Positions 6,700 through 44,900 are shown, counted from the stretch's first letter. The stretch: DNA of 64,000 nt from Nitrosopumilaceae archaeon (GCA_965207375.1 CBDBMG010000002.1:512001-576000); one strand, 5' to 3'. Program-made: numbers and translations. Notes: generated by a model not told the origin, from the letters alone.

Positions 6700-8821
6700 G
6701 AAGTGTTCCCATTGATAAGATACCTAAAATACCCAAGTTCAGTGCTATTAACAATAGTGATGACACATCAAGACGATTACAGAGACACAATTCACAAGAC
6801 AACAGTGACACAGGGTGTAGCGCTGGTGTTGCAGCAAAATCAAAGAGTTCCAAATCAAGGCAACAACCACACAAGTCAAAAGACTTCTCATAAATTCAGT
6901 TATACTCCTATCAGGCCTAAGAACACAACCAAATCTAAAGGCCAAGTATTAACATCGGCAAACAAGAAGCTTCCATCTCCTGTCAGCGACAGCTCACAGC
7001 AACAACAAAATGAACACAGAAGAACAACTAACACTGTCAAGCCAACATCAGCAAGCTCTTCATTTAGCAGCAATGTTTCAAGCAGTGATATAATAAGTGT
7101 AGTAGACAACTCATCTACTTTGGATGCAACCACTAACAATGTCAAGAATGTACCATCACTGACCTCTTTACCCAGTAAAGTTTCAAGCAATGATAGAATA
7201 AGTACAGTAGATAGACCAGCTTATTTGGATGTAACCACTTTTACCCTTTCACTTGATCCTTCAAATTTTTCAGATACAGACACAGATGCTTCAGCATCTA
7301 GTGCAGGTGATAACAGAAGGTTAGGAAGTGGTGTTATTTGAGCTGTGGTAATTAAGATATAATATTTGTTATGCAGGTTGGCAAACTTGGGTGACCAGCC
7401 ATCCCCAGTGAGCTGTCACAGTGTGGAGGTAGCAGTTGGTTGTCAGGATGTCATCCAGTCATCTGTAGCAGTTCAGTGTAGTATGGAGGATGATGTATGT
7501 ATCAGCATGTACTGTGTATTCATAACAACACAAGTTTATAATTTGTTTAATAATCTTATTAATGTTAAACTGAAACTTTTAAGGATGGCTGCACTTATTT
7601 GGAAATGCTAATTGCAATGGAGTCAGTTGGTCAGTGAAGCCATTCAATGCTTACCTCTTTGGAATGTTGCTTAGCCTGTGGCCCTGTGGTTTAATATCTA
7701 TTGTGTGTGTGCACTCCTAAGGTGGTCACCTCAGTGGTCTACACCAGTAATCTAATAATAGTAGCCTGCAGCTGTTGTTTGTCAGGTGATGTTAGCTGCA
7801 CAAGTCGATACATTTTTGTTTGTGTAGGAGCTGGAGAAAACGGTAGTGTTATGCCATGAGCAGCTGGATAAACTCAAGAAGACATCTGCTGGTATAACAG
7901 AGAGGGAGAGCCGTAATAACGAGCTGCTTCTAGAGAATACCAAATTGAAGAAATTACTCCATAAGGTACAGATTGAAATGAGACAGTTGAAAAAGGTACA
8001 ATCAACTACTTTGTGTTGTTATGTTAGGTAACACTTTGTATATTGTTGATCAGGTCATTAGCACTGTAAAACATGATGCTGCAAAACAAGATGCTGCTAC
8101 ACAGGTTGATCCTGACATAGACAGGATTACAGTTCAGGTATAAGCATTATATCAGAAGTAATTTCAGTTGCCATTACTGCAGGATGAGGTGCAGCAGCCA
8201 GTAGTACAAACTGACAGACAGACAGATTCTCCTAAATCTTCAAGAAGCTTGCACAAGCGATCATCCTCCACCATTGGTGAGGATCCAACTTATGAGCCAT
8301 CCAAGAAGAAGAGGAAAAGGAAGAAAATAAAACTATCTTCACCAACTGAAGCTAAAGAGAAAACAGAAGCAGCAGCTAGTCCAGAGAATTCACATGTTGA
8401 TGCAATTACTGCATCTCCTCCGGAGAGTGAAGAGCCTGTTGACATAGAGGTTATTGAGAATGAATACCATGTTACAAAATTAGTGGAGGATGCAGGTGAA
8501 ACAGCAAATAAAGAAAATGACAGTACACTTCTAGCTGTTGATGGTGATAATGCCTCTGGTTCACTGGATGTATCTGCTTTGATGGAGGGTGCAGTTTTGG
8601 ATAGTAACAATTCTAATAATGCAGTCACTGACAGTACTGCTGCTACTTCACCAGTTGCAAATGATTGCACTAAAGCCTCACCCACTAATGGTATTAGCGT
8701 AGCTACACCCACCTGTTCAGCCAATCAGAATACAGTAACAAGTAACAATGCAGTAGCTGAAAGTCTACCACCTTTTAGTGCAATTCCATCTGATTGTGCA
8801 ACTACTGTTATACAGCTCTAA
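6700..8821 (+). pseudogene. Multi-exon low-complexity Ser/Thr-rich protein with coiled coil and basic NLS; probably frameshifted or truncated
   Basis: GT-AG bounded coding blocks at ~6700-7319, 7377-7494, 7829-7995, 8054-8137 and ~8170-8821. Coiled-coil exon (ELLLENTKLKKLLHKVQIEMRQLKK), KKKRKRKKIK motif and an apparent frame switch near 6885. Confidence 0.55.
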
Positions 8822-8844
8822 TACATACACACAGTAATATGTTA

Positions 8845-9047
8845 CCGTATAGCAGGTTAATTTCGAGGATTAAAATTTTCGAGGTTGAGCAGTTTTGTAA
8901 TAATTCGCGGATTTAATTTCGTGGAAACCATACTGCATATACATTATAATATTTATATTAAAATATTCGAGGTTTAATTTTCGAGGTGTGTCAAAAATCC
9001 ACGAAAACAGCGAAATATAATTCCCTCGAAAATTTCCGGCTATACGG
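8845..9047. mobile_element. Tc1/mariner-pogo-type MITE
   Basis: Termini CCGTATAGC...GCTATACGG flanked by TA on both sides; internal TTTCGAGG repeats. Confidence 0.85.
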
Positions 9048-9229
9048 TAGTGCTATCTTATGGGGTATAGAGATTGACAACATTACTTTCTCTAATTAAA
9101 CATACATTGTATATTGAATCACAAGTCTTTACCATTCGCCTACGGACAATGGAAACAACACATATACACAATTAAGGATTCTAATTAGTAAATTATTAGA
9201 TGGTTAACTACGTAAGTATCTATTATGCA

Positions 9230-10350
9230 GTTTAAGTAACAAAGAAGTCACTGATTACAATGGCTATGTACGTATCTTCTGACTTGTAAGTAAGCATCAA
9301 TACCATAGTCACCAGTTGCATCTGGAGAATCTATCAAGTAACCACCTACCAAAGTATTCAACTCAGCATATTGCTGTGAACTCAAAGGATTATTGGTATC
9401 AATATTTGGCAAATCAAGCAACTCAGAATGTAAGAAATACTCGGAAGGTTTGGATAATCAATTGGCGTTTCCAAATAAAATGCCACATGTATACAATTGT
9501 ATTGGCGTCTTGTTGTTTTCAGACGTTAAGGCATGATTATTCCATCCAGTCATGAAAATTCGTTTATCTTTTGCAATGAAGACAGAATAGATCCAATTCT
9601 GAAGCTGGATCAAGAATTCCATTATCTTCCAAATGATAAAATATTTGATAAAACACTGAAAGTACACATCTGTATGTGTCTCTCCACAAACGTTCTACTC
9701 TTTGGTTATGGACAGATGAGCCAGTTATCATAGGATTCCCATGAATCAGCATATATTCAGCAACCTAAATATGCACAGTATATTTAACATAAAAAGAAGC
9801 AATTGCAAGTTAATTGTTCACAAAAGGCAATACAATAGTGACAATTATAGTGATCAAAAACTTCAGCTAAATAGCTAGCTATGTAAGCTAAATCTATAGT
9901 TAGATGGACTAGGTAGCTATGTAGCTAAATACATGCTCTTATATAGCTATCTACCTTGATATTATCACCCCCCTTATCATTTCTGACACGATCTGGAAGG
10001 CCATAATCTCTGACTGCACCCTCAAACAAATGAAACACTGTTTCACTCCTGTTGTTATTCGAACAACACAAATACACAATAAATCGAGAGAAACTGTCTA
10101 TCCCACTATGCACTACCAGCCTCCACCTACACAGAACAATTATTATAGTGACTTTTAAAAACCTTGTTCTATGTAGCTACCTTATTAATTTGTGGTTCCC
10201 ATCTATATGCCATAGGGCATTTGGGTAAATAACTGAGTACACCCTTCTTCTAATGGGAGATGCCCATCGTAAAGCTGAATTTATTGGATCTACTTCAGAT
10301 AAACATTCACGTAATCTAATGGTGGACACATGGATATGTATTTTCATATC
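9230..10350 (-). pseudogene. Integrase-core (RNase H-fold DDE, rve/rva_4-like) transposase pseudogene, 5'-truncated, three exons
   Basis: Spliced motifs RRRVYSV..PNALWHIDGNHKLIR | W..VVHSGIDSFSRFIVYL..SNNNRSETV...YGLPDRVRNDKGGDN | ITGSSVHNQRVERLWRD. Frameshifts follow in the last exon. Confidence 0.85.
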
Positions 10351-10467
10351 AGAGTCAATTAAGGAGGTGTTTACCATGGTAGAATTTTCTGAAAGAGGAA
10401 CCATTCATCGTCCTTTAGAAGAACAGACCTATGTGTTTTTTAAAGAATTTTTAGAGGAATGTGAAGG
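10351..10467 (+). pseudogene. Isolated exon fragment resembling a HECT-type (G2E3-like) ubiquitin ligase
   Basis: ESIKEVFTMVEFSERGTIHRPLEEQTYVFFKEFLEECEG followed by a GT donor. It resembles the FSExG..R..EE....F..FL..CE segment of G2E3-like HECT domains, but is short and judged by eye. Confidence 0.4.
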
Positions 10468-10938
10468 TATATAGCTACCTATCATTTGTACATGCATGTC
10501 ATTTTATAGGCATTCCAATGCATGCACGTGACTTAAAGGGAACCACAGGGCAACAAATCTCATGTTCCTTTTTGCACCAGGGCAACATCATGATGCATGT
10601 ACTTGGGGCAATATCATGATGTTGCCTGGGAAGGTGGTATGCCTTTTGTTTGATCTTGTACAACTGTTGTTTGATCTAAGCTAAAGGTTCCCACTCTTAT
10701 TTGTAGGTAATAATTTCTGCATTTGTTTTATACAGAGACTTGTTGTAGGTTTGAATAAACATCAGTTTTATGATGCAACAATACGACATTGCAATCTTGA
10801 GCTGATGTTTGGCCATGCATGATTTAGTGTTGCATAACAGTGATTTGCCTGATATGTATACCCTCGTCCTTTGAAATTTGGGTGTACACTCATGTCCATG
10901 TTATAATTAATAAATGTACGTATACCACTAACAAATAT

Positions 10939-11856
10939 TTAATCCACTTCATAACTTGAATTGTTTATAATTATATTACTACACAGATAAGAAAGAAGAG
11001 GCTGGCTGTAGCTATACTCTGGAAGACATTCTGGTGTTTTTTTCTGGTGCTGAAAGGGTACCGCCTTATGGGTTTGGTGATACATCTCCTTCACTTGTGT
11101 TCTTTTTCTGCCTGGTAGTTTCTTTGCTTTTGTTGTTTGAGTTTCTTCTATCTCATGCAATGGCAAAAGGGAATGATCATCAATTGTATCTTTCCCTGGA
11201 GAAAGGGAATCGTCACTAGTTACTTCTTTCCCTGAAGAAAGGGAATCGTCGTTAGTTACTTCTTTCCCTGGAGAAAGGGAATCGTCATTAGCCACTTCTT
11301 TCCCTGTAGAAAGGGAATCGTCATTAGCCACTTTTTTCCCTGTAGAAAGGGAATCATCATTAGCCACTTCTTTCCCTGAAAAAAGGGAATCGTCTACTTC
11401 TTTCCCTGGAGAAAGGGAATCGTCATTAGCCACTTCTTTCCCTGTAGAAAGGGAATCATCATTAGTCACTTTTTTCCCTGTAGAAAGGGAATCATCATTA
11501 GCCACTTCTTTCCCTGAAGAAAGGGAATCGTCTACTTCTTTCCCTGGAGAAAGGGAATTGTCTACTTCTTTCCCTGGAGAAAGGAAATCGTCATTAGTCA
11601 CTTCTTTCCCTGGAGAAAGGGAATCGTCTACTTCTTTCCCTGGAGAAAGGGAATCATCATTGGTTACTTCTTTTCCCGGAGAAACGGAATCGTCATTAGT
11701 TGCATCTTTCCCTTGCAACAGTGGCTGATCATTAGTTACTTTGTCCCCTTGTATCACCAAAAGAGGCTCGTCATCAACGGTTTTTTCCTTTTGTGTCACT
11801 GACAGGGAGCTGTGAGCAGGTTTAGAACTTTTTTGCTGTAAATCTGGTTTGAATTC
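10939..11856 (-). CDS. Exon encoding an acidic repeat protein with ~15 DDSLS(P/S/T)GKEV(T/A)N units
   Basis: Open 312-codon frame with a TTTTACAG acceptor near 11857. The 36-bp and 30-bp tandem units (~11195-11710) keep the frame. Confidence 0.6.
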   Translation of the reverse strand, partial: EFKPDLQQKSSKPAHSSLSVTQKEKTVDDEPLLVIQGDKVTNDQPLLQGKDATNDDSVSPGKEVTNDDSLSPGKEVDDSLSPGKEVTNDDFLSPGKEVDNSLSPGKEVDDSLSSGKEVANDDSLSTGKKVTNDDSLSTGKEVANDDSLSPGKEVDDSLFSGKEVANDDSLSTGKKVANDDSLSTGKEVANDDSLSPGKEVTNDDSLSSGKEVTSDDSLSPGKDTIDDHSLLPLHEIEETQTTKAKKLPGRKRTQVKEMYHQTHKAVPFQHQKKTPECLPEYSYSQPLLSYLCSNIIINNSSYEVD

Positions 11857-13522
11857 TGTAAAATACACATATTTCATTGTAAAACTGATTTAAACTACAA
11901 AAATAGCGATTTCAGTACATACAGCATAACAATTATAGCTACGAGTGGAACTGAACATTACATATATATTATTTTTAAAAGTATGTAGCTAGTGTGTGTA
12001 AAACCTGTAGAATTGCAGGATGGGTGGAATATAAACATGCAAAATGTACGTAGCTTATTTCGTGCATTTGTGATAGACTATGAAATCGAGTGTGAATATT
12101 TGTACATATATGTAGGTCTCAGTTTATGCATATTGATATATGTATAGTGTCCAACTCTTAGTATACATACTCTCTCAAAGCTGCACTTGTCATAAATGTG
12201 TAGCTATAGTGAAAATAGATGTTTTAATATCTTTGTATGCTTGCCTTATGAACACATAGTACTGAAATCTGATTGCCCTACGTATACATACATAGGTAAA
12301 ATTAATTGTATATGAAATGATTATAGCCATTGGGTTTAGTGTACAGTATGCAATATGGCATTGCATCATGCCATAGCTATTTGCTTTAGTATGTACAGTG
12401 TATATTCAGAACTAACGTGTGTGTACAAATAATGGATCGTGGATGTGATAAAGTGCCTATAGCATATCTGGAAACTTATTTCTATATATGTTTACCTACA
12501 AAGACCACTATGAGTTGTGCTTCCTTCTATAGCATTCAGCTGATACCTCATAAGCATTTAATAACTCATGGATGGAAAGGACTTTAAATTTGTGTCACCT
12601 GCAATAGTACTCTGCTAGTCAACCCACTTGAAAGCTCTTCACATTATTTTAATGACATTTCACTCGGCCTTACAATGTTCAGTTTAAAACATACTTCCTC
12701 CTTAAAGTTCAGGCTCTGACATGTTGCTTTTCAAACCTTCAGTGGAGCCAAGCAACATAGCTATGTCTGCTCTTCATACTTTTGCTATCATTATTATTTA
12801 TGATAACTTTATCTAACAAGCTAAACAGTATTTATTCAGCAAAAACACACTCGGGGTATCAGCTCAACACAAATGTACTACAGGAAAACAATATTATGCA
12901 TGCTGCATAGTTAGTCATATCAAATTTTGTGAAGTAGCCAAAATATCCTACAGTAGTAATTCAAAAAATTGCTAGATACGAGTGACTTTTCCATAAAAGT
13001 ATTCTGTCCCAGTGAAGGAGTTAGACAGACATCACCATGTGTTATTTAAAATGATGAATGTGCGTAGGAGGAAATGATGAATCTATGCAAGTATGGAGAA
13101 GCAAACCAGATGCAGTGCTTAATGTTTGTAATTTTTATAATTACACCACTTTGGTTGCTTCTTGTTGCATGAATTCTATAGAATACACTGCTAGAGATGA
13201 GCCAGACGATGGTTTAAAGGCTACGATTCACACTGGTAGTACTCCAGAAAAGTTTAGTTATTATCCTTGTCCTCAACTTTGCTATAATTCCAGGATGCTA
13301 TTACAAAACCTTGTCTTCACAAAAATACAAGAACACACTGTAAGTTTTCTAGCAGACATATTTACGAGGTTAGGCTTGATCTGCAATTTTCTGGAGCTTA
13401 TAGCTACATTTAACCTGCTATGCAGCATGCTTGTAAGTCTAGTAGTTTGGCAATTATACCTATGTAATAGAGGTGCAACAATACATGATTTGGGTGTATT
13501 GATATATTGCCGCTTTTGTATC

Positions 13523-13945: not shown

Positions 13946-15353
13946 TTTGTATCACAATGCAGCGATATATTGTACGCACGATACGGTAAAGTGTGATTTA
14001 GCTGATTTTTACAGATGAACAAAACTTTTTCCCTAAATTACAACTTTCTATAAGCTCCAAATACGTAGTTGCAGAGTTGTAAAACTGGCACCCACAATGT
14101 ACTATACGTATAGGTATACAGTCTGAATGTCGATACACTGCAATACATCGATATATCACGATATTCGATATATCGATACAACTTAAATTTGTATCGATAC
14201 AGTATCACCGCCTAATGTATTACGATATGGTGATATATCAATGTATTGTTGCATCTCTACTGTAATACTTAACATGACTGGCCTATTTAGTATCAACCGC
14301 ATTTTAATAATTTTGTAAGACTTACTATTTATCATATTATCTTCAATTCTTGTATTGAAAACATCAAGATAGAGTAATAGTGCTTTTGCCTTTCCATTTC
14401 GAAATTGGAAGGCACAGTTATTCTCTCCAACATTCCTTTCATTTGTTTTGTTGATCTGTCTGATTTTTGATGTCAACTTCTCTTTTTCAAAGGGCATATT
14501 AAAAGGGATATCTTCAAATCGAATTGCTATCGCTAGCCTGTCTTCCCTTTTTCTTTTTATTACCAATTTGATGAAATGGCTGCACTAAAATGGAAAAATT
14601 CAATGTACAATATTTAAATATGAGCGCATTGTCAGTAATTTATTATGTAACTCATTAAATTTTGTTACTACGTATGGAGTTTTCAACAGACCAAATATTT
14701 AAATATTTAAACACATACATAAGTACACCCCCTGTACTGTATAGCACTAAACTTTGACAATGCCAAATTTTGGCAAATTTACCTCCATAGAAGTTTTGGA
14801 GGGTAAAACTTTGATGATACAAGCATCGCATGAGTCATGACTGTTACTATTAAAAATTGAAATTTGACAATGGGATAGTAATTTGCCAAAGGTTGGCATC
14901 ACCAAAGTTACAGTGTATTCGCAGCTGTTCAGTACTTTCAATGTTTTGGCCAAAGTGATGATGTTCAACTCAAAAGCGCTTTTGCTATTCCTGGCAACCA
15001 ATGAGACCAGCAATGTAATTTTGTGGTTGTTATGTACACTGTAAATACCTACAAGGCCTGTTGCAAAATCATTCACATTTTCAGAAAGTTGTCATATCCT
15101 TGCATGAAGAAACTGCCTTAGAGGAAAGCTTATACCTGTGTGGACTGTATTACAATGTGTGGCTGGGTATATAGCAGCAGCTTTCATTCCTTACACGCAC
15201 GTAGGCTGCATGCTTACATGGGTACAGACTAGTGCAGACAGACACGTTTTGATAGATGGATAGATAGATACCATTAGATAGATAAATAGATAGGTAAACA
15301 CATACTTTTCTGGAAACAATTTCGTATACGCCTGGTTTAACAACCTCAAATAA

Positions 15354-18300
15354 TTAAAAGTGATTTGCATTTCTGCATATACGTACCTGGTCTAAATCCA
15401 AATCTGCACAGCATTCAAGCAGAGCAGTACCAAACTGATCAAAAATGTTTTTCTCTACAGAAACTATTGGCTCTTTCATGATGACATTTTCTTCTTCTGC
15501 AATAAGACTCGTCAAAACTGTATCAAGCATATGTTGTACAACCAATTTCTTCAGTTTTCCTGAATGCGGTTCATCCAATCCATGTTCAAGCATCTATAAA
15601 ATGAATTTGTGATGTATGTAATACATTATTAAGTACGGTAGTACTTAATAGTAGGGATTGACACGAAAAAATATGGCATCCCACTTTTATGTGCCTCCAT
15701 AACACGCCTCACAATATATTTTACTTGAAAAAGCCGACTTAAATCCATTGGTAACACTATAATAACACTGTACCTTTGTAAAACGTTGTGAAAATCCTAA
15801 CAATGTGATCTGTAGAGGTTTTCAAAAATTTTCAGATCCTCCCTTATTTTGTCTGACTGCCTGCCGTGCCATAAGATCCACTAGCGCTAGGAGTATGGCT
15901 CTAGATTTTTCACACAATAAAGACTATCGTGTCCAATTTACTAAACTGTTGTTCCGATGAAGATTTATCCACTGCGCCATGGAGTTTCTTTTCATCCTTC
16001 ACTATCTTTCTTTTCTTTCTGTATTCATTAAAGGATGTGAGAAAATCACGAAACAAGGTGTTTATCGACATGTTGTACATACAACTTTACGTCACAAAAC
16101 AGCCACTTGCACACAATTTTTGATGTTTTTCGAATATAATACAGCTGTTTACCATGTTAACACTCTTGTTAACAAGCGCCTGTATTAGGTAGGCACCTGT
16201 AACAATTTAGTCACCTGGAAAACAAGACAAACTACGTATAAATTAAGTATGCTATAAAAGCACACAAACTAAAATTTAAAAATTCAAAAAATGAGTTGTG
16301 ATCAATCTTTCACTACTGCAAAAAGTAAGGAAACAAGGAATAAGATTTGGCACAAGAGAACACTAAAGTTTAATCCCTACTTTGGCTCACAATTTCAGTA
16401 GGTCAGTAGGTATGATCAAGTCAAAAGTAGGGGTAAAATTTTAGTGTTCTCTTGTGCCAAAATCTTATTCCTTGTTTCCTTACTTTTTGTAGCTGTGAAA
16501 GATTGATCCCTACTTACTTTTTAAACTTTTAATTATTCTAGTTAATATACAAAGGAGTGAATCTATGAACAACCTTAATTGTGATTTTTCATTATCTACA
16601 CTCATATCCACATGAAGCCATACTTTAAAGAAACTTTCAGAGATTAGAGATCTAGATAACTAATGAAACAAATTCTTGTCATCACTATATAGGTTGTACA
16701 AAGTAGATATACTCAGTCATAGACCGCTTGTTAATAGTTTCCCTAGCAAAATAAGTAGATTAGAAAAACTGCTTGTTTGGTAGCTATACAATATTAAAGT
16801 GATTTTGTTAATTATTATTTCAACTGCATCAAAACCATTTCAAAGAAAGTAGTGCTGCATTATTCTATTACCCATTGGGAGCGGAAAACATTAATTAACA
16901 TTTTTTGCATACAAGTTAAGTTATTTCACAGACATATTTGTGTGATATCCTTGCTGTTAACATTTGTCCCCAGCTTTGCCTACAGGAATATGGTATTCAT
17001 GCTTGGGATATAACTATAGCTTTCTACATCAAACCGAATACGAAATATAATCAAAGCTGGAGGGAGTGCCACAACAGTAAAATGAGGATAGTTACACAAT
17101 ATAGAGGCTTCTTATAATGACAAAGTATCTTGTGATATCTGTATAAATTCCCCAAGTATGTGCAAGCTTATATAGACACATGTTTTATGCTTAGTTACAA
17201 GACTTATTACCTTGTATGTAAAGTATAGTAGAATGGAACATCCTGTTACAACCTGAGGATTCGATATTCCTACAACATCGAACAGCATGGGATTAATCAA
17301 TTCTAATATCTCCGCACGGCCACCATCAATGAGGTCTTTCTCAATTCGAACTACAGCTCCTGCCATACTTGAAGCAGCTTCCAAACGATCTGGTAATTGC
17401 TGAAAAGCTGCAGCTTGATCTACGTTACTTGGACCAAATTTTGGGTTCTTAAAAGGAATCAGCAGTGCTCGTGATGAAATTCTGCATGTGTACATGTATA
17501 TAAAGTAATAGTACGTATGTACGTACATGAGTTGTATGCACATATGCAATAATCTATGTACATACCTTTCATTTTTTCCAAAAGTGAAATTACTGCTGTA
17601 TATTGGGCATATTAAAGGAAGTAGACTTCCACACATTACAATTGCGGATATTGTTCCATTGTAAAAAGAAACAACTACTTCATTTAAATCAACAGGAAAG
17701 CTAGGGTCATCAATTCCAAACGGCAAGCTAGAAATTGCTGCACGCTGTAAACAAAATGCCTTGCTGCACTTCATGTAATGATTTTTTGTGTTATCAGCAC
17801 CAAATAAACATAATTGACATGGATTTACCTGTTGAAACAGGTCCAGTTGCCATAACCTGGGGACAAAATTGGAACAATTTCAAGATTTCCTGATAATGAA
17901 TGCTCATACCTCCAGCACCCATCATCAGGATGCAACTCAAATAATTGTGGGCTAAACAAGTTTCTAATGTGTCCAGTAATTCTGGAAAGATTTGATTGGA
18001 AGTTGATACTTTGATATCAAATGTTATTTCTTCAAAAGATAATTCTTTTGAATTGCCTCCAAGCGATATAGAATTCTTCAGCCAGACATAATTGTGAGAG
18101 CTTGTATCCAGACCATCTTTGTTAAAAGCAATATCTTTTGAAAACACCCAAATATTTCCACATTTTTGCTTTCCCAAAAACAGGACTCCTATTTTTGGTT
18201 CACGATTAGGGTGGCTCTTATGAAATTTACATTTTTTCCAGCTTATGTATTGTGCAAGTTCTTTATCACTGAAAGAACATACTAGGCCACCACTTCCAAA

Positions 18301-18628
18301 GGTAGAATTGATCTGGGTTATGAAATCTACCTTTTTATGTACTGCTGATGTTGTAAAGTAACAAATTCTACAAATAGGGATGATGCATACCAAACCTAAC
18401 TTCATATATATAACTTTACCTTTTCTGTTGGTCAAATTGACGATTGACTGAGCATACAAATCCAGTCTTAGATCCAGCTTTTACAAAGTCTAATAATTCC
18501 AATCCAAAATCAGACTTTGGGAAGTATGAACCTCCCTTGGATATCCCAAAGGAAAACTCCATGTCACAATACTGGTATGGGTTATCAGAATCATCAGAAT
18601 TCTCTGTAAAACTTGAGTCTCCAGACAT
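15354..18628 (-). pseudogene. Intron-containing P-loop ATPase resembling phage/MGE DUF927/Cch-like AAA+ helicases; frameshift just after Walker A
   Basis: Exon 18628-~18420 splices in frame to 18367. Motifs: LGKQKCGNIWVF, Walker A GPVSTGKS, (frameshift) LFGADN..YMKCSKAFC, Walker B LPFGIDD, IYSSNF and spliced RISSRALLIPF (Arg finger-like). A further putative exon lies at 15593-15354. Confidence 0.65.
15650..16381. mobile_element. Non-autonomous TIR element in an intron of the ATPase gene
   Basis: Termini AGTAGGGATT...AATCCCTACT. An inverted copy of its ~90-bp subterminal region follows at ~16425-16512. Confidence 0.55.
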
Positions 18629-19069
18629 TGTAAAGCAGCAGAAGCACCAAGATACTTAACTTAGCTCACACTGCTACACTTTATATAAGAACCCACTCTT
18701 TTGATAAGAATGTGTTAATAATTAAAATAATTTTATGTAGATTAGTGGTGGTAGACTATAAATTGTAGTCTATGATGCAATCAGCAACACTTAAAAGCCT
18801 TCTTCAAAGATATTCTATTGCTGTTATGAAATCTACAGGTCATAGCTAACAACTTATAGATTACTTATCCTATCATCACATTAATGTACCTGATATGCAC
18901 AAAGTAGGCTTTTCTGTGGATCTTGTGTAATCACCAGTGAACAAATCCTTATATGATAGCTACCACCATGTGCTTTAAAGGTCACTTTTATGAGGAAGGT
19001 CCATATGTATCTGTTGAGTAGCTCAGGAAGAATGCTGGTAGTATTGGTTATTATATTGCTGCTTGGTTG

Positions 19070-22010
19070 TCAAGGGACACTTGGCACTAAGATACCAAAA
19101 TCATGGTCCACAAGAATTTCTGAAGTACTGAAGAAATATGATCTTACATGTAAGCAGTATTATATAATTCAGCAAAATTACATAATATGGAATAGGCAAT
19201 GAGATCCATCATCATGGGGAAATTTCACTGGTATCAAGAAGGACAGAATTGGAAGGTCCTCCACAACCGGAAGACATCCTATACCCATCTATTATAATTT
19301 GGAGTCCTTTTGAGGAGCACAATTTGGAAAGTATAGTTAAATGCCCTCTCTGTCAAAGTAGCTTGATTACTCATGACAAATATTGGGCAGATGGTACTCA
19401 TTCTTTTCAACCTAGAACATTACATTCATTTGATCACTTAGTTTTGTTGGTGAGCTGAGTTTATCAATGTATCAGTAAGCAAATATTGCTAGCACACGAC
19501 GAACGGTTTCTTCAGACTCTAGCAAAGTCAATAAATGTTCCATTTGTTTTACTCCACAAGACAGTATATACTAAAGAATTTATCAATAAGGTTGTAGTAC
19601 TTTGTAATAATGGATTAAATTTTTTCAAGGTTGAATCCATGAGCATAGAAGAACATTGGAATTATCATAGTATTTTAGAGCAAAAGTATTGGCAAGAGTT
19701 AAAGGAATACAAATCTCATTATCCCATGGAAGAACTCCAAACTATATCTTTTCCTACATTTACAATAGATGGAGGACCATTGTGTAGCATTCCAAGCAAT
19801 GATGCCATTGCTCAATGTTTCTTGAAAGACTTTATGGAGAAGGAAAGGTATTACATATCAGAAATGGTACACTTAACAAGCGATATATGGATCAACTGTG
19901 ATCATACTTTTAAAGTACGTAGCATCGAATATCGGATATTTGAGAGAATATAAAAAGTGGATTCGACAGTATAGCGAAGTATTCTTTGTCTTGAATAATG
20001 AAGGAAAAGTTATAAGTTGGCAGTTTACTAATGGAACATCTTTTGCTGAAATACAAATGTTGCTGACAAATTTAAAATATCGCTTTGAAACCCTAGGTGC
20101 TAAAGTACAAAAAGTAACTGTTGATAATTGTTGTCAGTGGAGAAATAAAATACAAGTTATATTTGGAAATAGCACGAGTGAGTGTATGTTTAGATGTATT
20201 TCATGCTGTGCAAAGAATTTCAAGAGCACTGCCAAAGAAACATCAATTATTTCATAAATGCATTGATGACTTAAAATTTGTTTTTAGAACTAGTGGAGAC
20301 TTGGGTATAAAGAGATGCAAGTCAACACCCTCACCAGACAAAATGCTCAGTAATATGGACCAATTTGTTGAAAAATGGAAAGACATCACTCATTCAGAAG
20401 TACCCTTGTTGAATGGTGGAGCACTAAATGAAATTGAAAAACTTAAAGTTCATATCACTCATTCAGGAAAGGATGTCTATCTAACATTGAAGTGGGATGT
20501 GGAACTAACTGAAATGAAGCTTTACACAGGCACATCAATTCCTTTTTCTACCAGAGCAGAATCAGTATGCTTCTAGCTTATGCACTTATGACAGTGCTTA
20601 TATATTCTCACAATTCTGCTCAACAAATTAAACCGAAAAGAGTTATAAAACCAATCAACACTATCATTGCTGAAGAGGCAAAACGTTCATATTTATCTTC
20701 ATTGTCAGAGAGGGTAACGACCATCATAGAACATTTTGGAATAATGCCCAAAGATTTATCAGATTTAAAAGATGATAGAGTATTCTATGACAAGCCTTCA
20801 GAAGAATGTGAAGGAGGCATTTTTGACCTAGATACAGCAACTATGCTGCTTTCAAATGCTGTACAGCAAAGTATGGTAGTTAACCAGATGAAATATTGCA
20901 AGCAGCTCCAAATATATTTAGTGATGCAAAAGGAGATTGAAAAATTAATTACTTCACCGAAGGATACACATGCTCCAAATGATCAGTTCCTAAATAATCT
21001 ACTTGAATCCAACAATCTACAACTGATTCCAGTTCCAGGAGATGGTAACTGTTGTTTTACTGCTGTAGGTAAGGGATTACAATGCATACTTGAAGAAAAT
21101 GGTGCATACAAATCAAGTCTTCTGGAACATGTGAACTCAATTGGTTTACAAATTGGTGATCTGCAACACACATCTTTGCAACTTCGAAAACTGACCATTG
21201 AGGAGTGGACTAGTTCTAACAAGAGTTTTTATGAAAAATTTCTTATCAGTCACCAAAATATTGATGATGCCACAGAAAAATTTTCTGAATCTGGATATTT
21301 TCAAAATGATCTTGGCGACTTAATGATATTAGCACTATGCAATGTGCTACATCTACCTATTATTATTTTTTCAAATATACCCAACCAGCCAGTTATTCCC
21401 ATATTGCCCAGAGAGACACGCTTTGACTCGTTGCTTTTTGTAGCATACAATCACATAGGTGCAGGCCACTATGATGCTGCAGTTACAAAGAAAAGGACGT
21501 TATCACAACCCAGGAACGATAGCTACTGCAAATGTGGTGTTAATGGAGATAAGCCCAGTTGTTGTAACAATGAAGGCTACCATACTGTGTTTTAAGAAAG
21601 GCATTGGATGTTCACAGTTGTGTAAGTGCAAAAACTGCTCAAACACATTTGGCAGAAGATCTTTATTGGGTAAAAGGAACTGAGTTATGCACACACAGCA
21701 GTATACTCTCCCAAGTAGCAAATTATTTGCTGAAGAGCAATCTGAGAAAATAAAGTATGGTCCATGGACACTTTTGGAAAACATAATTCTGGCTCATGTT
21801 CTTCAGAATTTCAGTGAGAATTTAGAAGATATGACAACAGAACACATACTACAAGGTTTCAATGAAATTATTACTTTTAACAAAATGTCACATTGCACTA
21901 TACAAATACCTGACTATATAATGATTGCAAGTCATAAAACTCCCTTGCAAATAAATGGTAAACTCCAATCACTATCATTACAAAATGAACAACACAAGAA
22001 TGACAAGTAG
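19070..22010 (+). pseudogene. KDZ/Zisupton-like DDE transposase fused to an OTU cysteine protease and a CXC/CRC-like cysteine cluster; decayed
   Basis: Motifs reassembled across frameshifts: VKCPLC, LAHD, WINCDHTFKV/ASNIG, VLNNEGKVISW, VTVDNCC, CLDVFHAVQRI, GCGTN*NEALHRHIN. OTU: VPGDGNCCF...GHYD. C-terminal CKCG..C...C.KKG.GCSQLCKCKNCSN. In-frame intron at 19150-19195; TGA stops at likely CGA codons (19456, ~20510). Confidence 0.75.
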
Positions 22011-23389: not shown

Positions 23390-24497
23390 TTAGAACCATT
23401 AGAACCAGGAAAACCATGAGAACCAGTGGAACCATTAGAACCATTAGAACCAGGAGAACCAGGAGAACTATTAGAACCAATGGAACCATTAGAATCAGTT
23501 GAACCACTAGAACCAGTGGAACCATTAGAACCATTAGAACCATTAGAACCAGTGGAACCATTAGAACCATTAGAACCAATGGAACCATTAGAACCAGTGG
23601 AACCACCAGAACCAGTTGAACCATTAGAACCAATGGAACCATTAGAACCAATGGAACCACCAGAACCAGTTGAACCATTAGAACCAATGGAACCATTAGA
23701 ACCAGTGGAACCAGGAGAACCATTAGAACCAGTGGAACCACCAGAACCAGTGGAAACATTAGAACCAGTGGAACCATTAGAACCATTAGAACCAATGGAA
23801 CCATTAGAACCAGTGGAACCAACAGAACCAGGAGAACCATTAGAACCAATGGAACCATTAGAACCAATGGAACCACCAGAACCAGTTGAACCATTAGAAC
23901 CAATGGAACCATTAGAACCAATGGAACCAGGAGAACCAGTAGAACCAGTGGAACCACCAGAACCAGTGGAACCATTAGAACCAGTGTAACCATTAGAACC
24001 ATTAGAACCAATGGAACCAATGGAACCATTAGAACCAATGGAACCATTAGAACCAGTTGAACCATTAGAACCAGTTGAATCATTAGAACCAATGGAACCA
24101 TTAGAACCAGTGGAACCACCAGAACCAGTTGAACCATTAGAACCAATGGAACCAGGAGAACCATTAGAACCAGTGGAACCACCAGAACCAGTGGAACCAT
24201 TAGAACCAGTGTAACCATTAGAACCATTAGAACCAATGGAACCATTAGAACCAGTGGAACCAACAGAACCAGGAGAACCATTAGAACCAATGGAACCATT
24301 AGAACCAATGGAACCATTAGAACCAATGGAACCATTAGAACCAGTAGAACCACCAGAACCAGTGGAACCATTAGAACCAGTTGAACCATTACAACCAATG
24401 GAACCATTAGAACCAGTGGAACCAACAGAACCAGGAGAACCATTAGAACCAATGGGAACCAGTGGAACCACCAGAACCAGGAGAACCATTAGAACCA
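23390..24497. repeat. ~1.1 kb tandem array of 9-bp units GAACCANNN; open as (Gly-Ser-X)n on the minus strand
   Basis: About 120 units with NNN = TTA/GTG/ATG/GGA/CCA/GTT/ACA/GTA and higher-order blocks. Two minus frames are open; the plus EPx frame has two TAA stops. Confidence 0.95.
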
Positions 24498-41900: not shown

Positions 41901-44900
41901 GCATGTACATCCCCCTGGACAACTATAGCAACAATTTACATAACTATAGCTATATGATTATTCATTGCAAATACTGCTAGCTATATGCAACTACGTATAA
42001 GACTATAGCTAAGAGTAACAAAGCTGTAATTTACGAGGTGCCTGTTCAGCAAATACATCAATAATTTTCTCTATGTCTGGCATGATGTCTCTCTCAATAT
42101 TAAGAAGAGCTAAAGCAGTGAGCCTTTCTTGACCCATTGTGCTACGCAAGTAGCTTTTAAGGCGTCTTAAGCAGGAAAATGACCGCTCAGCTGAGCATGA
42201 TGTAATTGGTATTGTCCAAAAAATTTTCATCAGTTTGCATAACTCTGGAAGCACACTCTGCACTCCTCTGTCTTCTGCCATAAGTTTTCTTCGTTTGCAT
42301 AGTATTTTGTATCCTTTGTCATCTTCTCCTTGGACTGTGACACCACTTTGTTCTTTTTCCTTTTGTTTCATTAAATTAGTGTAAACTCTCAGTTCTGCTT
42401 TAAGATTGTCTTTATCTAAGTCATAAAACTCTGAAACTTGTTCAAGGGCTGTTTGTGATACACTAGAAATATTGTCAGCTAACAGCACTGTTTCAATATT
42501 CTGAACAATCATCATATCATTTTCACTAAATCGTTCTTTAAGTTGACTTATTATTACATCTAAAAGTGGGTAAAAACTTGCCACTTGATAGTAATGCTCA
42601 ACATTTCTGTATACTGGCTGTATCTCACCTCCTCCTAATCTTGAAGGTACTCTTCTCTGCCTTGGCAAGTGCGGAGGTTCTAATTCTAACTTCCTTGAAA
42701 TTTCTATAGCTTCTTTCCAGTACTTCTGGAATTCTGTGTCTGATCTCATTTCTGTTAAACTTTCTTGCACTGCACTAATTTTGCTGCGTGCTGCACATAT
42801 AGACAAATCAATATATTGCAAGTATTTAGAAAGTATCTTTGTAGTGTTGAAAACCTCATCCAGTATTACAAGGTTGAAGACAAAATCAAATGTGCAGATG
42901 GAATTCAATAAAGACTGTGCTTGAGCTCCAGATGATGGATCTTCATCAGTTATCTTTTGCAAAGATGTTATTACATCCTCAAGTCTTTTCTTTATTACTT
43001 TCAATGCCTCTGCTCGGCATGCCCAACGTGTATCCGAGAGACTCTTCAGAGTGAGTGATTTACATCCTGATTGCTTCTGTATCTCTTGAAACACAGCATG
43101 TCTTTTTGCTGATGCCTCCATAAAATTGTGCAATTCAGATATGGTACCAAAGGTATTTCTAGCTGCTATAACTGCTTTAGCAGCATCTACCAGCACTAAA
43201 TTAAGGATATGACCATTGCAATGTACATAAATTGCCCTTGGATTATCTCTCTTAATCCTTGCAGCCACCCCTTTGTACATGCCTCTCATATTAGCAGCTC
43301 CATCATAGCATTGAGCAACAATGTCATCAATATTAAGATCAAGTGTCATTAAAACTGTCTGTACAAGGTGATATAGTGATTCACCATCTGTTTGAGTGGC
43401 ACGAAAAAAGCCAATAAACCTCTCATTCACAACAAATTGAGGATTCATATATCGTAAAACTACTGCAGCCTGCTCATGTCTAGAAATATCTAAGGATTCA
43501 TCCAAAATCAAGGCAAACATTCTGGCATCCTTAATTTGATTGATTGTACTGTCCCTGATGTTCTCTCCTATGACATTCAGCAAGTCATTTTGAATACCAG
43601 GACTGGTATATGTTACATTTTTTTCTTTGTTAGCAAAAAAACGGCTTATTAAAGGGTTATTTTTAGCTTGAAACATTAAAAGTTCCAAAAAATTTCCTTT
43701 GTTTAGTGATTCTTCATTCTCACGGTGACCCCTTAATGAAATACCTTGTCTACCAATGAAAACAAGTGTTTCGACGATGTTCTTAAGATATTGTCTGTTT
43801 TCATCAACCACTTTTTTTTGTTGCTGGTTTATTAGACTCACCACATTCCTTTCAGGGTTGTGTTGTATTTGCTTACCAACTTCCCAGGCAAGAATTGCAC
43901 TTTTGTGTGCAACAGAACACTGATGTGCACGGAACTTCTCCAAGGCACTTTTCCAGTTTTGAAAACCATTAGATACAAAGGCTTCCTGATGATGACCTTT
44001 TGTGCCAAACACACGGCAAGGGAAGCAAAATGCTTTATTAATACTTGGGCTGTATTCCAACCATTTGAACTGAGTATACCACTGAGCACAAAAATGACGA
44101 CTATGACAATCAACAGGATACTGACACCTTGGTTGAAATGGACCGTGTCCTTCATGAAATATAGTAGCTGCAGCATCAACACCATTTGCAGGATCTCGTG
44201 AAGTAATTAACTGGTTGTTGCTGGAAGCAGTACTAGTGGTCTACATTACACGTGTTTAAATTTTAGATATTAATTGTAGCTAGCTATAGCTTACTCTGTC
44301 ATTGGTGGCAAGCTCACTACCCAGCTCTTAAGGTTGGTCTTCAATAGCGATATCGCTATCACTATCGCTAATTTCAAGATCAAAACTTGAGCTTGCCTCA
44401 TCAGTTGCTAATTCATTGCTGCTAGTAGAATTTTCTGTTGAGTCAGCGTTGCTTCCTTCCCTGTCTTCAACTAATTTTCGTTTCGCTACAAAATACTTAT
44501 CTAAGCCACTTGAACGCTTTGACATAGCATGTGCATTATTTGGAATTAGCATTATAATCGATTGTGGTTTTCACTTTTAGTGCTTGTTGTCTACTATCTA
44601 AAAAGGTGAATATTATATATAATTATTGTATGAGGTATATACAATAATATTTGTATTGTGTGTATGAACAGTGTGGTGAGTCTCTGCTTCTACTAGCTAG
44701 CTACCTGTTTTCTTGTGGCTGGATCATTAAAAATTTTAGGAGGGGCAAGAAAAGACTTAGGAGGGGCTTTGCCCCTCTTTGCCCCCCCTCAAATACGCCT
44801 ATGGTGAAACAGGTCTTATTTCATCCAATAAACCATACCTTCCCTTGCAAATAAGCAAAATTCGCAACATTTATACATTTTATGCCAAGTTTCTGTAGTG

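Follow-up and report, generated by a model that had tools for sequence, protein, structure and literature searches.

So far as is known, eukaryotic cut-and-paste DNA transposons increase in number only by indirect means: the donor site is repaired, or the element moves while DNA is being replicated. Some eukaryotic transposons encode a helicase of their own, namely Helitrons and Helentrons (HUH nuclease plus superfamily 1 [SF1] helicase) and AcademH, and bacterial DDE transposases may be paired with an AAA+ partner, as in MuA-MuB, Tn7 TnsB-TnsC, and IS21 IstA-IstB. To our knowledge, a pair of the latter kind is undescribed for eukaryotic DNA transposons. Here we analyze two divergent genes in a 64,000-nucleotide stretch of DNA (positions 512001 to 576000 of contig C3 in assembly G000; henceforth the window), one for a putatively Mutator-like transposase with OTU and CXC domains, the other for a predicted DUF927/Cch-type AAA+ ATPase. 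Very probably, what lies between 14.2 and 24.5 kb of the window is an ancient, defunct member of a DNA transposon family that has two genes, moves by cut-and-paste, and belongs to a marine invertebrate host.

The closest described group on the transposase side is Rehavkus, a relative of the Mutator-like elements (MULEs) with a PHD finger on its transposase, a 9-bp target site duplication (TSD), and a single open reading frame (ORF), according to the available text of PMC6446971, where a table gives 8 to 11 bp as the TSD range expected for the Mutator superfamily. With Rehavkus and other MULEs, which are relatives of IS256, the window family shares an IS256/Mutator-type DDE core by predicted fold, long terminal inverted repeats (TIRs), presumptive cut-and-paste movement, and TSDs of 8 to 9 bp. 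It also has a minisatellite just inside the element end, as Rehavkus has before its 3′ TIR (PMC6446971, available text). Unlike Rehavkus, however, the family has TSDs of 8 rather than 9 bp, a transposase in which OTU and CXC domains are present and a PHD finger is absent (Pfam, 39 full-length members), minisatellites of up to 3 kb in both TIRs, and a second gene, that of the DUF927-type ATPase. Pfam Mutator models remain below cut-off for the family. In its available form, the main text of the MULE survey PMC6446971 does not contain the words helicase, ATPase, or OTU.

On the ATPase side, the nearest systems are Cch of SCCmec, the SaPI Rep/primase-helicases, and the phage DUF927 primase-helicases. 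The predicted likeness of fold extends over the N-terminal domain, AAA+ core, and C-terminal helices; Walker A, Walker B, and sensor motifs are shared, and in each case the gene belongs to a mobile element and lies beside a recombinase or transposase. Sequence likeness is marginal (Pfam, 20 to 22 bits; PDB, E values of 0.01 to 0.03). The window ATPase differs in coming from a eukaryotic host, in having spliceosomal introns, in lacking a primase domain or partner, and in being accompanied by a DDE transposase instead of a serine or tyrosine recombinase. MuB, TnsC, and IstB resemble it as oligomeric ATPases that are encoded beside a DDE transposase and could steer target choice or assembly, but are members of different AAA+ clades and lack an N-terminal domain like that of Cch. 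Helitrons, Helentrons, and AcademH likewise supply their own helicase; theirs, however, is of SF1 or SF2 and fused to the nuclease or transposase, whereas that of the window family would be AAA+ (SF3/MCM-like), and Helitrons use rolling-circle instead of DDE chemistry. An OTU protease is also carried by Helentrons (PMC6431247, part of the text) and, in the form of an OTU-like cysteine protease fused to the transposase, by Ginger1 (PMC2836005, part of the text), which differs in its retroviral-integrase-like DDE enzyme and in having no helicase gene.

Complete members of the window family are 12 to 19 kb long and have two genes, an intronless transposase of ~880 to 1070 aa and an intron-bearing ATPase, and three assemblies each supply an element in which the pair is enclosed by TIRs and TSDs (Table 1). 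This supports the central inference of an earlier sequence-only reading of the window, namely that the pair may be at the heart of a large DNA transposon of animals with its own helicase, here a helicase-like ATPase of the phage/plasmid type. The termini all begin with 5′-GGYT, and the inverted repeats, 1.5 to >4 kb long, hold kilobase arrays of 9- or 18-bp minisatellite units; three TSDs are perfect 8-bp repeats and one matches at 7 of 8 positions. In the element on contig C4 of G000, the TIRs consist of 116 unique bp at 98% identity plus ~1.4 kb of minisatellite, the terminus reads GGTTGTTTC..., and the paralogous ATPase and transposase genes follow each other on the same strand. The ATPase of the G061 element is placed head-to-head with an intact 916-aa transposase, 866 bp away, the same layout as in the window, and that of the G063 element lies upstream of a 1074-aa open transposase frame. 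A 4,241-bp copy on contig C3 has the same termini (~70 bp) around what is almost wholly a 9-bp-unit minisatellite; the family therefore has nonautonomous relatives. A further nonautonomous relative with the same ~70-bp termini and a body of 9-bp-unit minisatellite is present at C2:16755-19435.

The C4 element itself (C4b) has an inverted duplicate at 98.7% identity, C4a, which is without 9,421 bp including the ATPase and the right element end. An insertion of this block into C4b was considered and rejected: it has neither TSD nor TIR and takes in the right element end plus 1.7 kb of flank, for which reasons the difference is read as a deletion in C4a.

The recurrence of the pair, named as a check in the sequence-only reading, was confirmed in five assemblies, all of them host contamination in bacterial metagenome-assembled genomes (MAGs): at six of the eight distinct transposase loci, an ATPase gene is found at most 6 kb away (Table 1). 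The count of eight leaves out the C4a duplicate and a partial transposase copy inside a TIR. Eleven small transposase matches, each from 1 of the 105 queries, were set aside as matches to nontransposase parts because one query carries a reverse transcriptase domain (C2:380696; C3:67197, 71968, 240187, 349523, 606726, 641514, and 685677; C4:15242, 361200, and 643984), as was one plus-strand match of an ATPase query (P0142) inside the transposase. The G064 ATPase was detected only by tblastn with family proteins, the profile search having missed it. As to the two unpaired transposase loci, one is a decayed copy and the other a fragment, and in the 20.3 Mb of G061 the sole ATPase locus is the one inside the element. 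That the two genes are unrelated elements or genes lying side by side by chance in a repeat-rich region is extremely unlikely. It is true that the window copy has no defined ends, that other repeats abound, and that a hAT element is nearby; against this, three TSD-flanked elements enclose both genes, six of eight loci are paired, and a rough estimate gives <1e-3 for two ATPase loci in 2.14 Mb of host DNA both falling within 6 kb of one of three transposase loci. The gene pair is real and recurrent and forms one mobile element; what the window holds is a dead copy of it.

The transposase has 105 longer relatives at an E value of ≤0.001, many of them single open frames of 850 to 930 aa. Its OTU and CXC domains, already assigned by the sequence-only reading, are supported by their boxes, by the fold, and by intact relatives, even though the window copy itself scores just below the Pfam cut-offs (OTU, 21.0 bits against 23.3; Tesmin-CXC, 23.3 against 23.5). 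Among the 39 full-length members, Pfam matches at an E value of ≤1 were obtained with MSL2-CXC in 25 and with OTU in 22; the remaining matches were weak, with DUF6729 in 3, Transposase_mut in 2 (best E value, 0.0036), and DDE_Tnp_ISL3 in 3, none above cut-off. A structure model of the family (predicted local distance difference test [pLDDT] score, 80.4) matched the transposase ISCth4 best (6xg8 and 6xgx; E = 2e-7, target TM-score of 0.55, ~436 columns), with Mu and the P element far weaker. Next after ISCth4 came OTUD3 (E = 1.7e-5, target TM-score of 0.81) and OTUD1, so that the OTU domain has a predicted cysteine protease fold along with its Cys and His boxes. Because the best solved fold is that of ISCth4, of the IS256 family, and the tests for KDZ were blank, we file the transposase as probably Mutator-like in its mode of action, with Rehavkus as the closest described group and membership at the sequence level unproven.

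The same sequence-only reading had instead placed the enzyme in the KDZ (Kyakuja-Dileera-Zisupton) superfamily, an assignment that we now consider very improbable. KDZ elements are likewise eukaryotic, of large size and of the DDE type, and have cysteine clusters; the motif order of the window transposase (D..FK, D..CC, D.FH, NE..H) resembles that of KDZ/CMC-type cores. Moreover, a paralogous ATPase stands head-to-head with a true CxC5-KDZ gene (see below), and the 8-bp TSD would also fit Zisupton (PMC12730594, part of the text). However, Pfam KDZ (PF18758) matched 0 of the 39 members at an E value of ≤1, against 35.9 bits for the KDZ gene at C3:443 kb used as a positive control, and alignment of the 39 members with nine CxC5-KDZ proteins by hhalign showed no similarity in the core (probability of 0.2%, the match being confined to 21 columns in the CXC region). 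Among solved folds ISCth4 is the best match, in a comparison that had no solved KDZ structure to draw on, and the only Pfam transposase matches, weak as they are, are the Transposase_mut and ISL3 ones. We would replace the KDZ label by Mutator-like, near Rehavkus.

For the ATPase, fold comparison supports a DUF927/Cch-type AAA+ (SF3/MCM-like) helicase-like protein without a primase domain, in line with the DUF927/Cch likeness suggested in the sequence-only reading. The window pieces matched no Pfam family, and a window piece searched against longer proteins found no homologue. A HMMER scan of 1.84 billion representatives recovered 390 relatives at an E value of ≤0.001, mostly exon-sized fragments; those with a name are uncharacterized proteins of Patiria miniata, Amphimedon queenslandica, and Ptychodera flava. 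A PHD finger is C-terminal in some homologues, including the Amphimedon protein. Pfam DUF927 (PF06048) matched four of eight homologues below threshold (12.7 to 21.9 bits; cut-off, 22.6), and the family profile placed the SaPI Rep helicase 8tch (E = 0.013) and Cch 5dgk (E = 0.028) at the top of the PDB, both weakly. The structural comparison was made with an AlphaFold model of the Ptychodera homologue P0109 (pLDDT, 84.4), which stands in for the window protein. In Foldseek searches this model matched SCCmec Cch (5dgk) over its whole length (E = 1.6e-8, 436 columns), followed by monkeypox virus E5, NrS-1, the SaPI5 primase-helicase, and JC virus large T; phage DUF927/Toprim primase-helicases were matched at an E value of 2e-12 (query TM-score, 0.59), and the look-alikes in the protein atlas are DUF927 clusters. 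A 35-sequence family alignment shows no exception to the lysine of Walker A and hardly any to the DD of Walker B. Between the window ATPase and its C4 paralogue, the proportion of differences over 545 codons is 0.25 at nonsynonymous sites (pN) and 0.74 at synonymous sites (pS), for a ratio of substitution rates (dN/dS) of ~0.1 to 0.2. With synonymous sites saturated and nonsynonymous change low, the ATPase was therefore under purifying selection for most of its history.

Because the nearest folds are helicases of phages, poxviruses, a polyomavirus, and staphylococcal islands, one might see in the locus the relic of an integrated episome or virus, the helicase being what is left of a viral replication module. 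A virus-derived origin, which had been raised as an option, is highly improbable. The complete elements consist of the two genes and repeats, with no capsid, polymerase, or primase and no room for other genes, and their TIRs and 8-bp TSDs mark DDE transposition. Two profile scans of viral contigs with narrow search patterns, one with the transposase alignment and one with a narrow ATPase alignment that had no match in genome contigs either, returned no relatives.

Within the window, all eight named motifs, four of the ATPase and four of the transposase, are in place, and the two genes diverge from a shared intergenic region that is presumably a bidirectional promoter, given the gene orientation (Table 1). 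A head-to-head layout with gaps of ~0.7 to 0.9 kb is also found at the G061 and G064 loci. Some particulars of the sequence-only reading need correction. The spacing, put at ~450 bp, measures ~0.5 to 0.6 kb; introns, attributed to both genes, are confined to the ATPase, which has three; and both genes are broken, the ATPase once and the transposase in four places.

Intron and frame calls for the ATPase are based on alignment with the paralogue at C4:886240-887999, which places an 11-base deletion at ~17813, right behind Walker A, where the C4 paralogue and relatives read through uninterrupted. Contigs from two sequencing runs, X1 (2,611 bases) and X2 (510 bases), which may derive from the same sample as the assembly, span the deletion site without gaps. 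Intron 3 measures 1.6 kb in the window against ~100 bp in the C4 paralogue, enlarged by inserted high-copy repeats at ~15626-16709: two ORF pieces in it (15629-15796 and 15910-16086) match dozens of sites on contigs C2 to C4, and over the repeat, word depth in four runs exceeds flanking values by a factor of 100 to 1000. The repeat includes an inverted-repeat pair at 16271-16537. Downstream of the ATPase, and outside the coordinates given in the sequence-only reading, lies the conserved ORF X, for which tblastn finds only one other full match in the genome. That match, at C4:883587-883844 (87 aa aligned, 46% identical), lies downstream of the C4 paralogous ATPase on the same strand. ORF X may be a 3′ exon of the ATPase or a small third gene; it had no match in the elements of other hosts and could not be related to the C-terminal parts of distant ATPase homologues.

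In the transposase, residues 2 to 872 of the intact 878-aa relative P0151 are covered in tblastn by five abutting pieces of the window in frames 3, 1, 2, 1, and 2, hence the four frame breaks. Assembly noise is an unlikely cause because near-identical duplicated segments differ mostly by substitutions (two pairs, with 19 substitutions and 5 gaps and with 72 and 13, respectively). Contigs of runs X1 to X5 differ from the window at 19915, 20176, 20455, and 21586, i.e., at the breaks. At the first break, an indel is seen in all four runs, each time in a fraction of the depth, and at the third all four runs are unlike the window; in X3 and X5, which come from another study, short indels, none of them a multiple of three, lie at or adjoin the last three. 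Polymorphism thus affects part of the transposase breaks, and the population may include an open allele.

Several observations weigh against the interpretation of the window as a dead member of a two-gene family. First, both genes of the window copy are broken, and its termini and TSD, unlike those of the C4, G061, and G063 elements, were not found: there is no TIR partner among the 25 longest of 122 inverted pairs, no terminal motif (0 matches with up to 3 mismatches), and no TSD, and inspection of the ends by eye revealed nothing beyond the minisatellite on the transposase side, a repeat that recurs in the C4 element TIRs in the same orientation relative to the transposase. Second, the Pfam DUF927 score remains under the cut-off even at its best (21.9 against 22.6 bits), the C4 ATPase copy reads GKI instead of GK[ST] in Walker A, and the role proposed for the ATPase is drawn from homology. 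Third, all five assemblies may be from sponges, making for a small and related sample. Last, the two genes do not keep strict company. The layout varies (three loci head-to-head, two tandem, and one convergent); pairwise identities of ATPases and transposases are uncorrelated (Spearman coefficient of -0.21; 10 pairs, five loci), so that the pair is not strictly coinherited; and the ATPases of the window and C4 are 67% identical as against 37% for the transposases, which makes the latter as distant as transposases of different hosts. Paralogues of the ATPase are also found apart from this transposase, in the neighborhood of a KDZ gene, a Harbinger-type gene, and a retroelement.

The first of these, a third paralogue in G000 (C3:429634-443818), has a PHD finger, is closest to the Amphimedon protein, scores 16.6 bits with DUF927 (below cut-off), and stands head-to-head, at ~0.8 to 0.9 kb, with a five-exon CxC5-KDZ gene (PF18758, 35.9 bits). 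Inverted tandem arrays at 425036-427928 and 444461-445234, identical to each other over the outer 150 bp, flank the pair; a TSD of 4 to 10 bp was not found there at offsets of 0 to 25. An ATPase adjoins only this 1 of 11 canonical KDZ loci in three assemblies. The second, in G063 (C17:526001-542000, positions 7011 to 11920), has an open frame of 391 aa; at a distance of 2.3 kb lies an open THAP-HTH-DDE_Tnp_4 transposase of the PIF/Harbinger type, possibly a third kind of partner or a chance neighbor. Yet another paralogue lies near a retroelement and a minisatellite. Because the divergences of the two genes do not track each other and the gene order varies, the ATPase appears to be a portable accessory cassette, reassorted or exchanged among element lineages, rather than part of one indivisible unit.

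The same mobility could be taken to mean that the ATPase is a mere passenger, a host or foreign gene captured in the manner of Pack-MULEs and carried without being needed for transposition. Gene capture is known in Mutator-like elements (PMC6431247, part of the text), the ATPase has introns and the transposase none, and variable gene order, uncorrelated divergences, and paralogues without this transposase would all be expected of a captured gene. But the pairing persists across transposases that are only 26 to 40% identical and in at least four further assemblies, dN/dS is ~0.1 to 0.2 and the Walker motifs are conserved, the only ATPase copy in G061 sits inside the element, and the two ATPase-free transposase loci are fragments. 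On balance, capture as an idle passenger is improbable, and we favor a functional accessory of the element.

How the two-gene element might work can be proposed along the following lines. The transposase would bind the repeat-rich ends and move the element by cut-and-paste. In its likeliest role, the ATPase, an element-encoded accessory rather than a passenger, would be loaded onto the element, where the 9- or 18-bp units arrayed in both ends are candidate iteron-like binding sites, and would engage the host replisome in copying element DNA that is excised or gapped, leading to a higher copy number. Over its full length the modeled ATPase resembles the replication initiators of excised islands, plasmids, and small DNA viruses. 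Since the element has no primase or polymerase, recruitment of the host replisome would fall to the ATPase, as it does to E1 in papillomaviruses and to large T in polyomaviruses. By analogy, we give a little less than an even chance to a role as initiator or as ring-shaped replicative helicase, like Cch, SaPI Rep, and the E1/large T proteins; the main alternative, an ATP-dependent regulator of target capture or transpososome assembly, like MuB, TnsC, or IstB, is rather unlikely though conceivable, and some other form of DNA or chromatin remodeling would account for what is left. If carried further, the first of these roles suggests a transposon-episome hybrid: a cut-and-paste transposon with its own origin-binding helicase of the Cch/SaPI Rep/E1 kind would copy its excised form before reinsertion, by way of the arrays and the host replisome, the helicase module being portable and shared by unrelated DDE transposases, Mutator-like and KDZ. 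We regard this combined scenario as rather unlikely, though not far-fetched.

As the sequence-only reading surmised, the pairing seems to be undescribed: a search of the main texts of open-licence papers yielded no description of a DDE transposon carrying a DUF927/Cch-type helicase gene. Owing to that scope, the family may already be cataloged in Repbase, or in the supplementary tables of PMC6446971, under a MuDR/Rehavkus name and with a second ORF. The role of the helicase-like ATPase is the interesting question of this family. If true, a DDE transposon with an initiator-type helicase of the prokaryotic mobilome would point to a new route to copy gain or target control in animals, would tie animal transposons to the replication modules of phages and to staphylococcal islands, and would offer a family of uncharacterized animal proteins, from Amphimedon, Patiria, and Ptychodera, a function that can be tested. 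Intact natural copies exist in the form of the 916-aa (G061) and 1074-aa (G063) transposase frames.

Table 1. Features of the window copy and of related loci and elements (window positions unless a contig is named)
Feature	Coordinates	Strand	Remarks
ATPase gene	18628-15354	-	Three conserved GT-AG introns and one frameshift; 3′ limit at least 15354
ATPase exon 1	18420..18628	-	ATG at 18626-18628
ATPase intron 1	18368-18419	-	GT-AG; position common to C4 paralogue
ATPase exon 2	17566..18367	-	N-terminal domain, Walker A, frameshift, Walker B, sensor SSN
Walker A GPVSTGKS	17821-17844	-	ATPase exon 2
Walker B FGIDD	17706-17720	-	ATPase exon 2
Sensor SSN	17586-17600	-	ATPase exon 2
ATPase intron 2	17482-17565	-	GT-AG; position common to C4 paralogue
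ATPase exon 3	17211..17481	-	Holds SSR, candidate arginine finger
Candidate arginine-finger motif SSR	17463-17480	-	ATPase exon 3
ATPase intron 3	15594..17210	-	Donor GT at 17210 as in C4 paralogue
ATPase last recognized exon	15354..15593	-	36% identity over 72 aa to C4:886261-886476, directly after paralogue exon 3
ORF X, conserved	14183..14584	-	Downstream of ATPase
Divergent intergenic region	18629..19185		Presumed bidirectional promoter
Transposase-OTU-CXC gene	19186..22010	+	Intronless, four frame breaks, no in-frame start codon; homology from 19285
Transposase frame breaks	~19920, ~20178, ~20465, ~21587	+	From alignment to intact relative P0151
DHTFK motif	19897-19914	+	Candidate catalytic D at 19900
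VDNCC motif	20120-20134	+	Candidate catalytic D at 20123
DVFH motif	20190-20204	+	Transposase
NEALH motif	20513-20527	+	Candidate catalytic E at 20516
OTU domain	~21035-21475	+	Cys box 21038-21058 (GDGNCCF), His box 21458-21475 (GAGHYD)
CXC domain	~21588-21647	+	CXC motif 21621-21638
Minisatellite	23391..24497	+	18/54-bp unit, ~61 copies (Tandem Repeats Finder); transposase-side subterminal array of window element
C4 element (C4b)	G000:C4:876494-890064		13,571 bp; perfect TSD GTTTGACC; both genes inside
G061 element	C30:96616-116010		19,395 bp; TSD CCAAGTGC; TIRs >4 kb including 3-kb array of 9-bp units
G063 element	C18:274895-286717		11,823 bp; TSD ACAATTAT
Nonautonomous copy	G000:C3:391982-396222		4,241 bp; same termini; TSD CTACAACT/CTACAATT, 7/8 matching
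Window locus			ATPase at 0.5 kb, head-to-head
C4b locus			ATPase at 5.3 kb, tandem
G061:C30 locus			ATPase at 0.87 kb, head-to-head
G062:C18 locus			ATPase at 0.55 kb, convergent
G063:C18 locus			ATPase at 3.4 kb, tandem
G064:C99 locus			ATPase at 0.8 kb, head-to-head

Assembly G000 consists of four contigs, C1 with 2.16 Mb and C2, C3, and C4 with 2.14 Mb together. ORF density is 0.73 to 0.91 in C1, as in a bacterium, versus 0.06 to 0.35 in C2 to C4, and beyond the gene pair the window contains immunoglobulin, fibronectin-III, and CUB exons and a hAT transposase. In view of the low ORF density of C2 to C4 and of these exons, the window and C2 to C4 are animal host DNA that ended up in the bin of a bacterial genome. 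A sponge is the probable host, because a KDZ protein on contig C3 is 88% identical to a protein of Dysidea avara and one related locus stems from the symbiont MAG of a poecilosclerid sponge. The ATPase is absent from 60 relatives of the bacterium, as expected of a gene that belongs to the host.

The quality figures of G000 read 99.95% complete and 0.06% contaminated despite its ~2.14 Mb of host DNA, and megabases of host DNA are likewise contained in assemblies G061 to G064. The practical point is that assemblies filed as bacterial genomes contain host DNA on the megabase scale. Contig C4 includes an inverted segmental duplication of ~46 to 68 kb at ~98.7% identity (C4:135242-181332 versus C4:862667-929942), and a second match, between C3:198507-255794 and C4:1-54047, is at 99.7% identity; haplotigs or a fold-back assembly join may account for them.

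Elsewhere in the window, positions 42009-44240 on the minus strand hold the apparently intact, open 743-aa frame of the hAT-type transposase, with DUF4371, a hAT dimerization domain, and a C17orf113-like zinc finger. The minus-strand segment 53582-60839, with fibronectin-III and several immunoglobulin-domain exons, evidently belongs to a host cell surface gene. A 316-aa open frame without a Pfam match lies at 10939-11889 and includes a 36/72-bp tandem repeat of ~15 copies (11189-11713).

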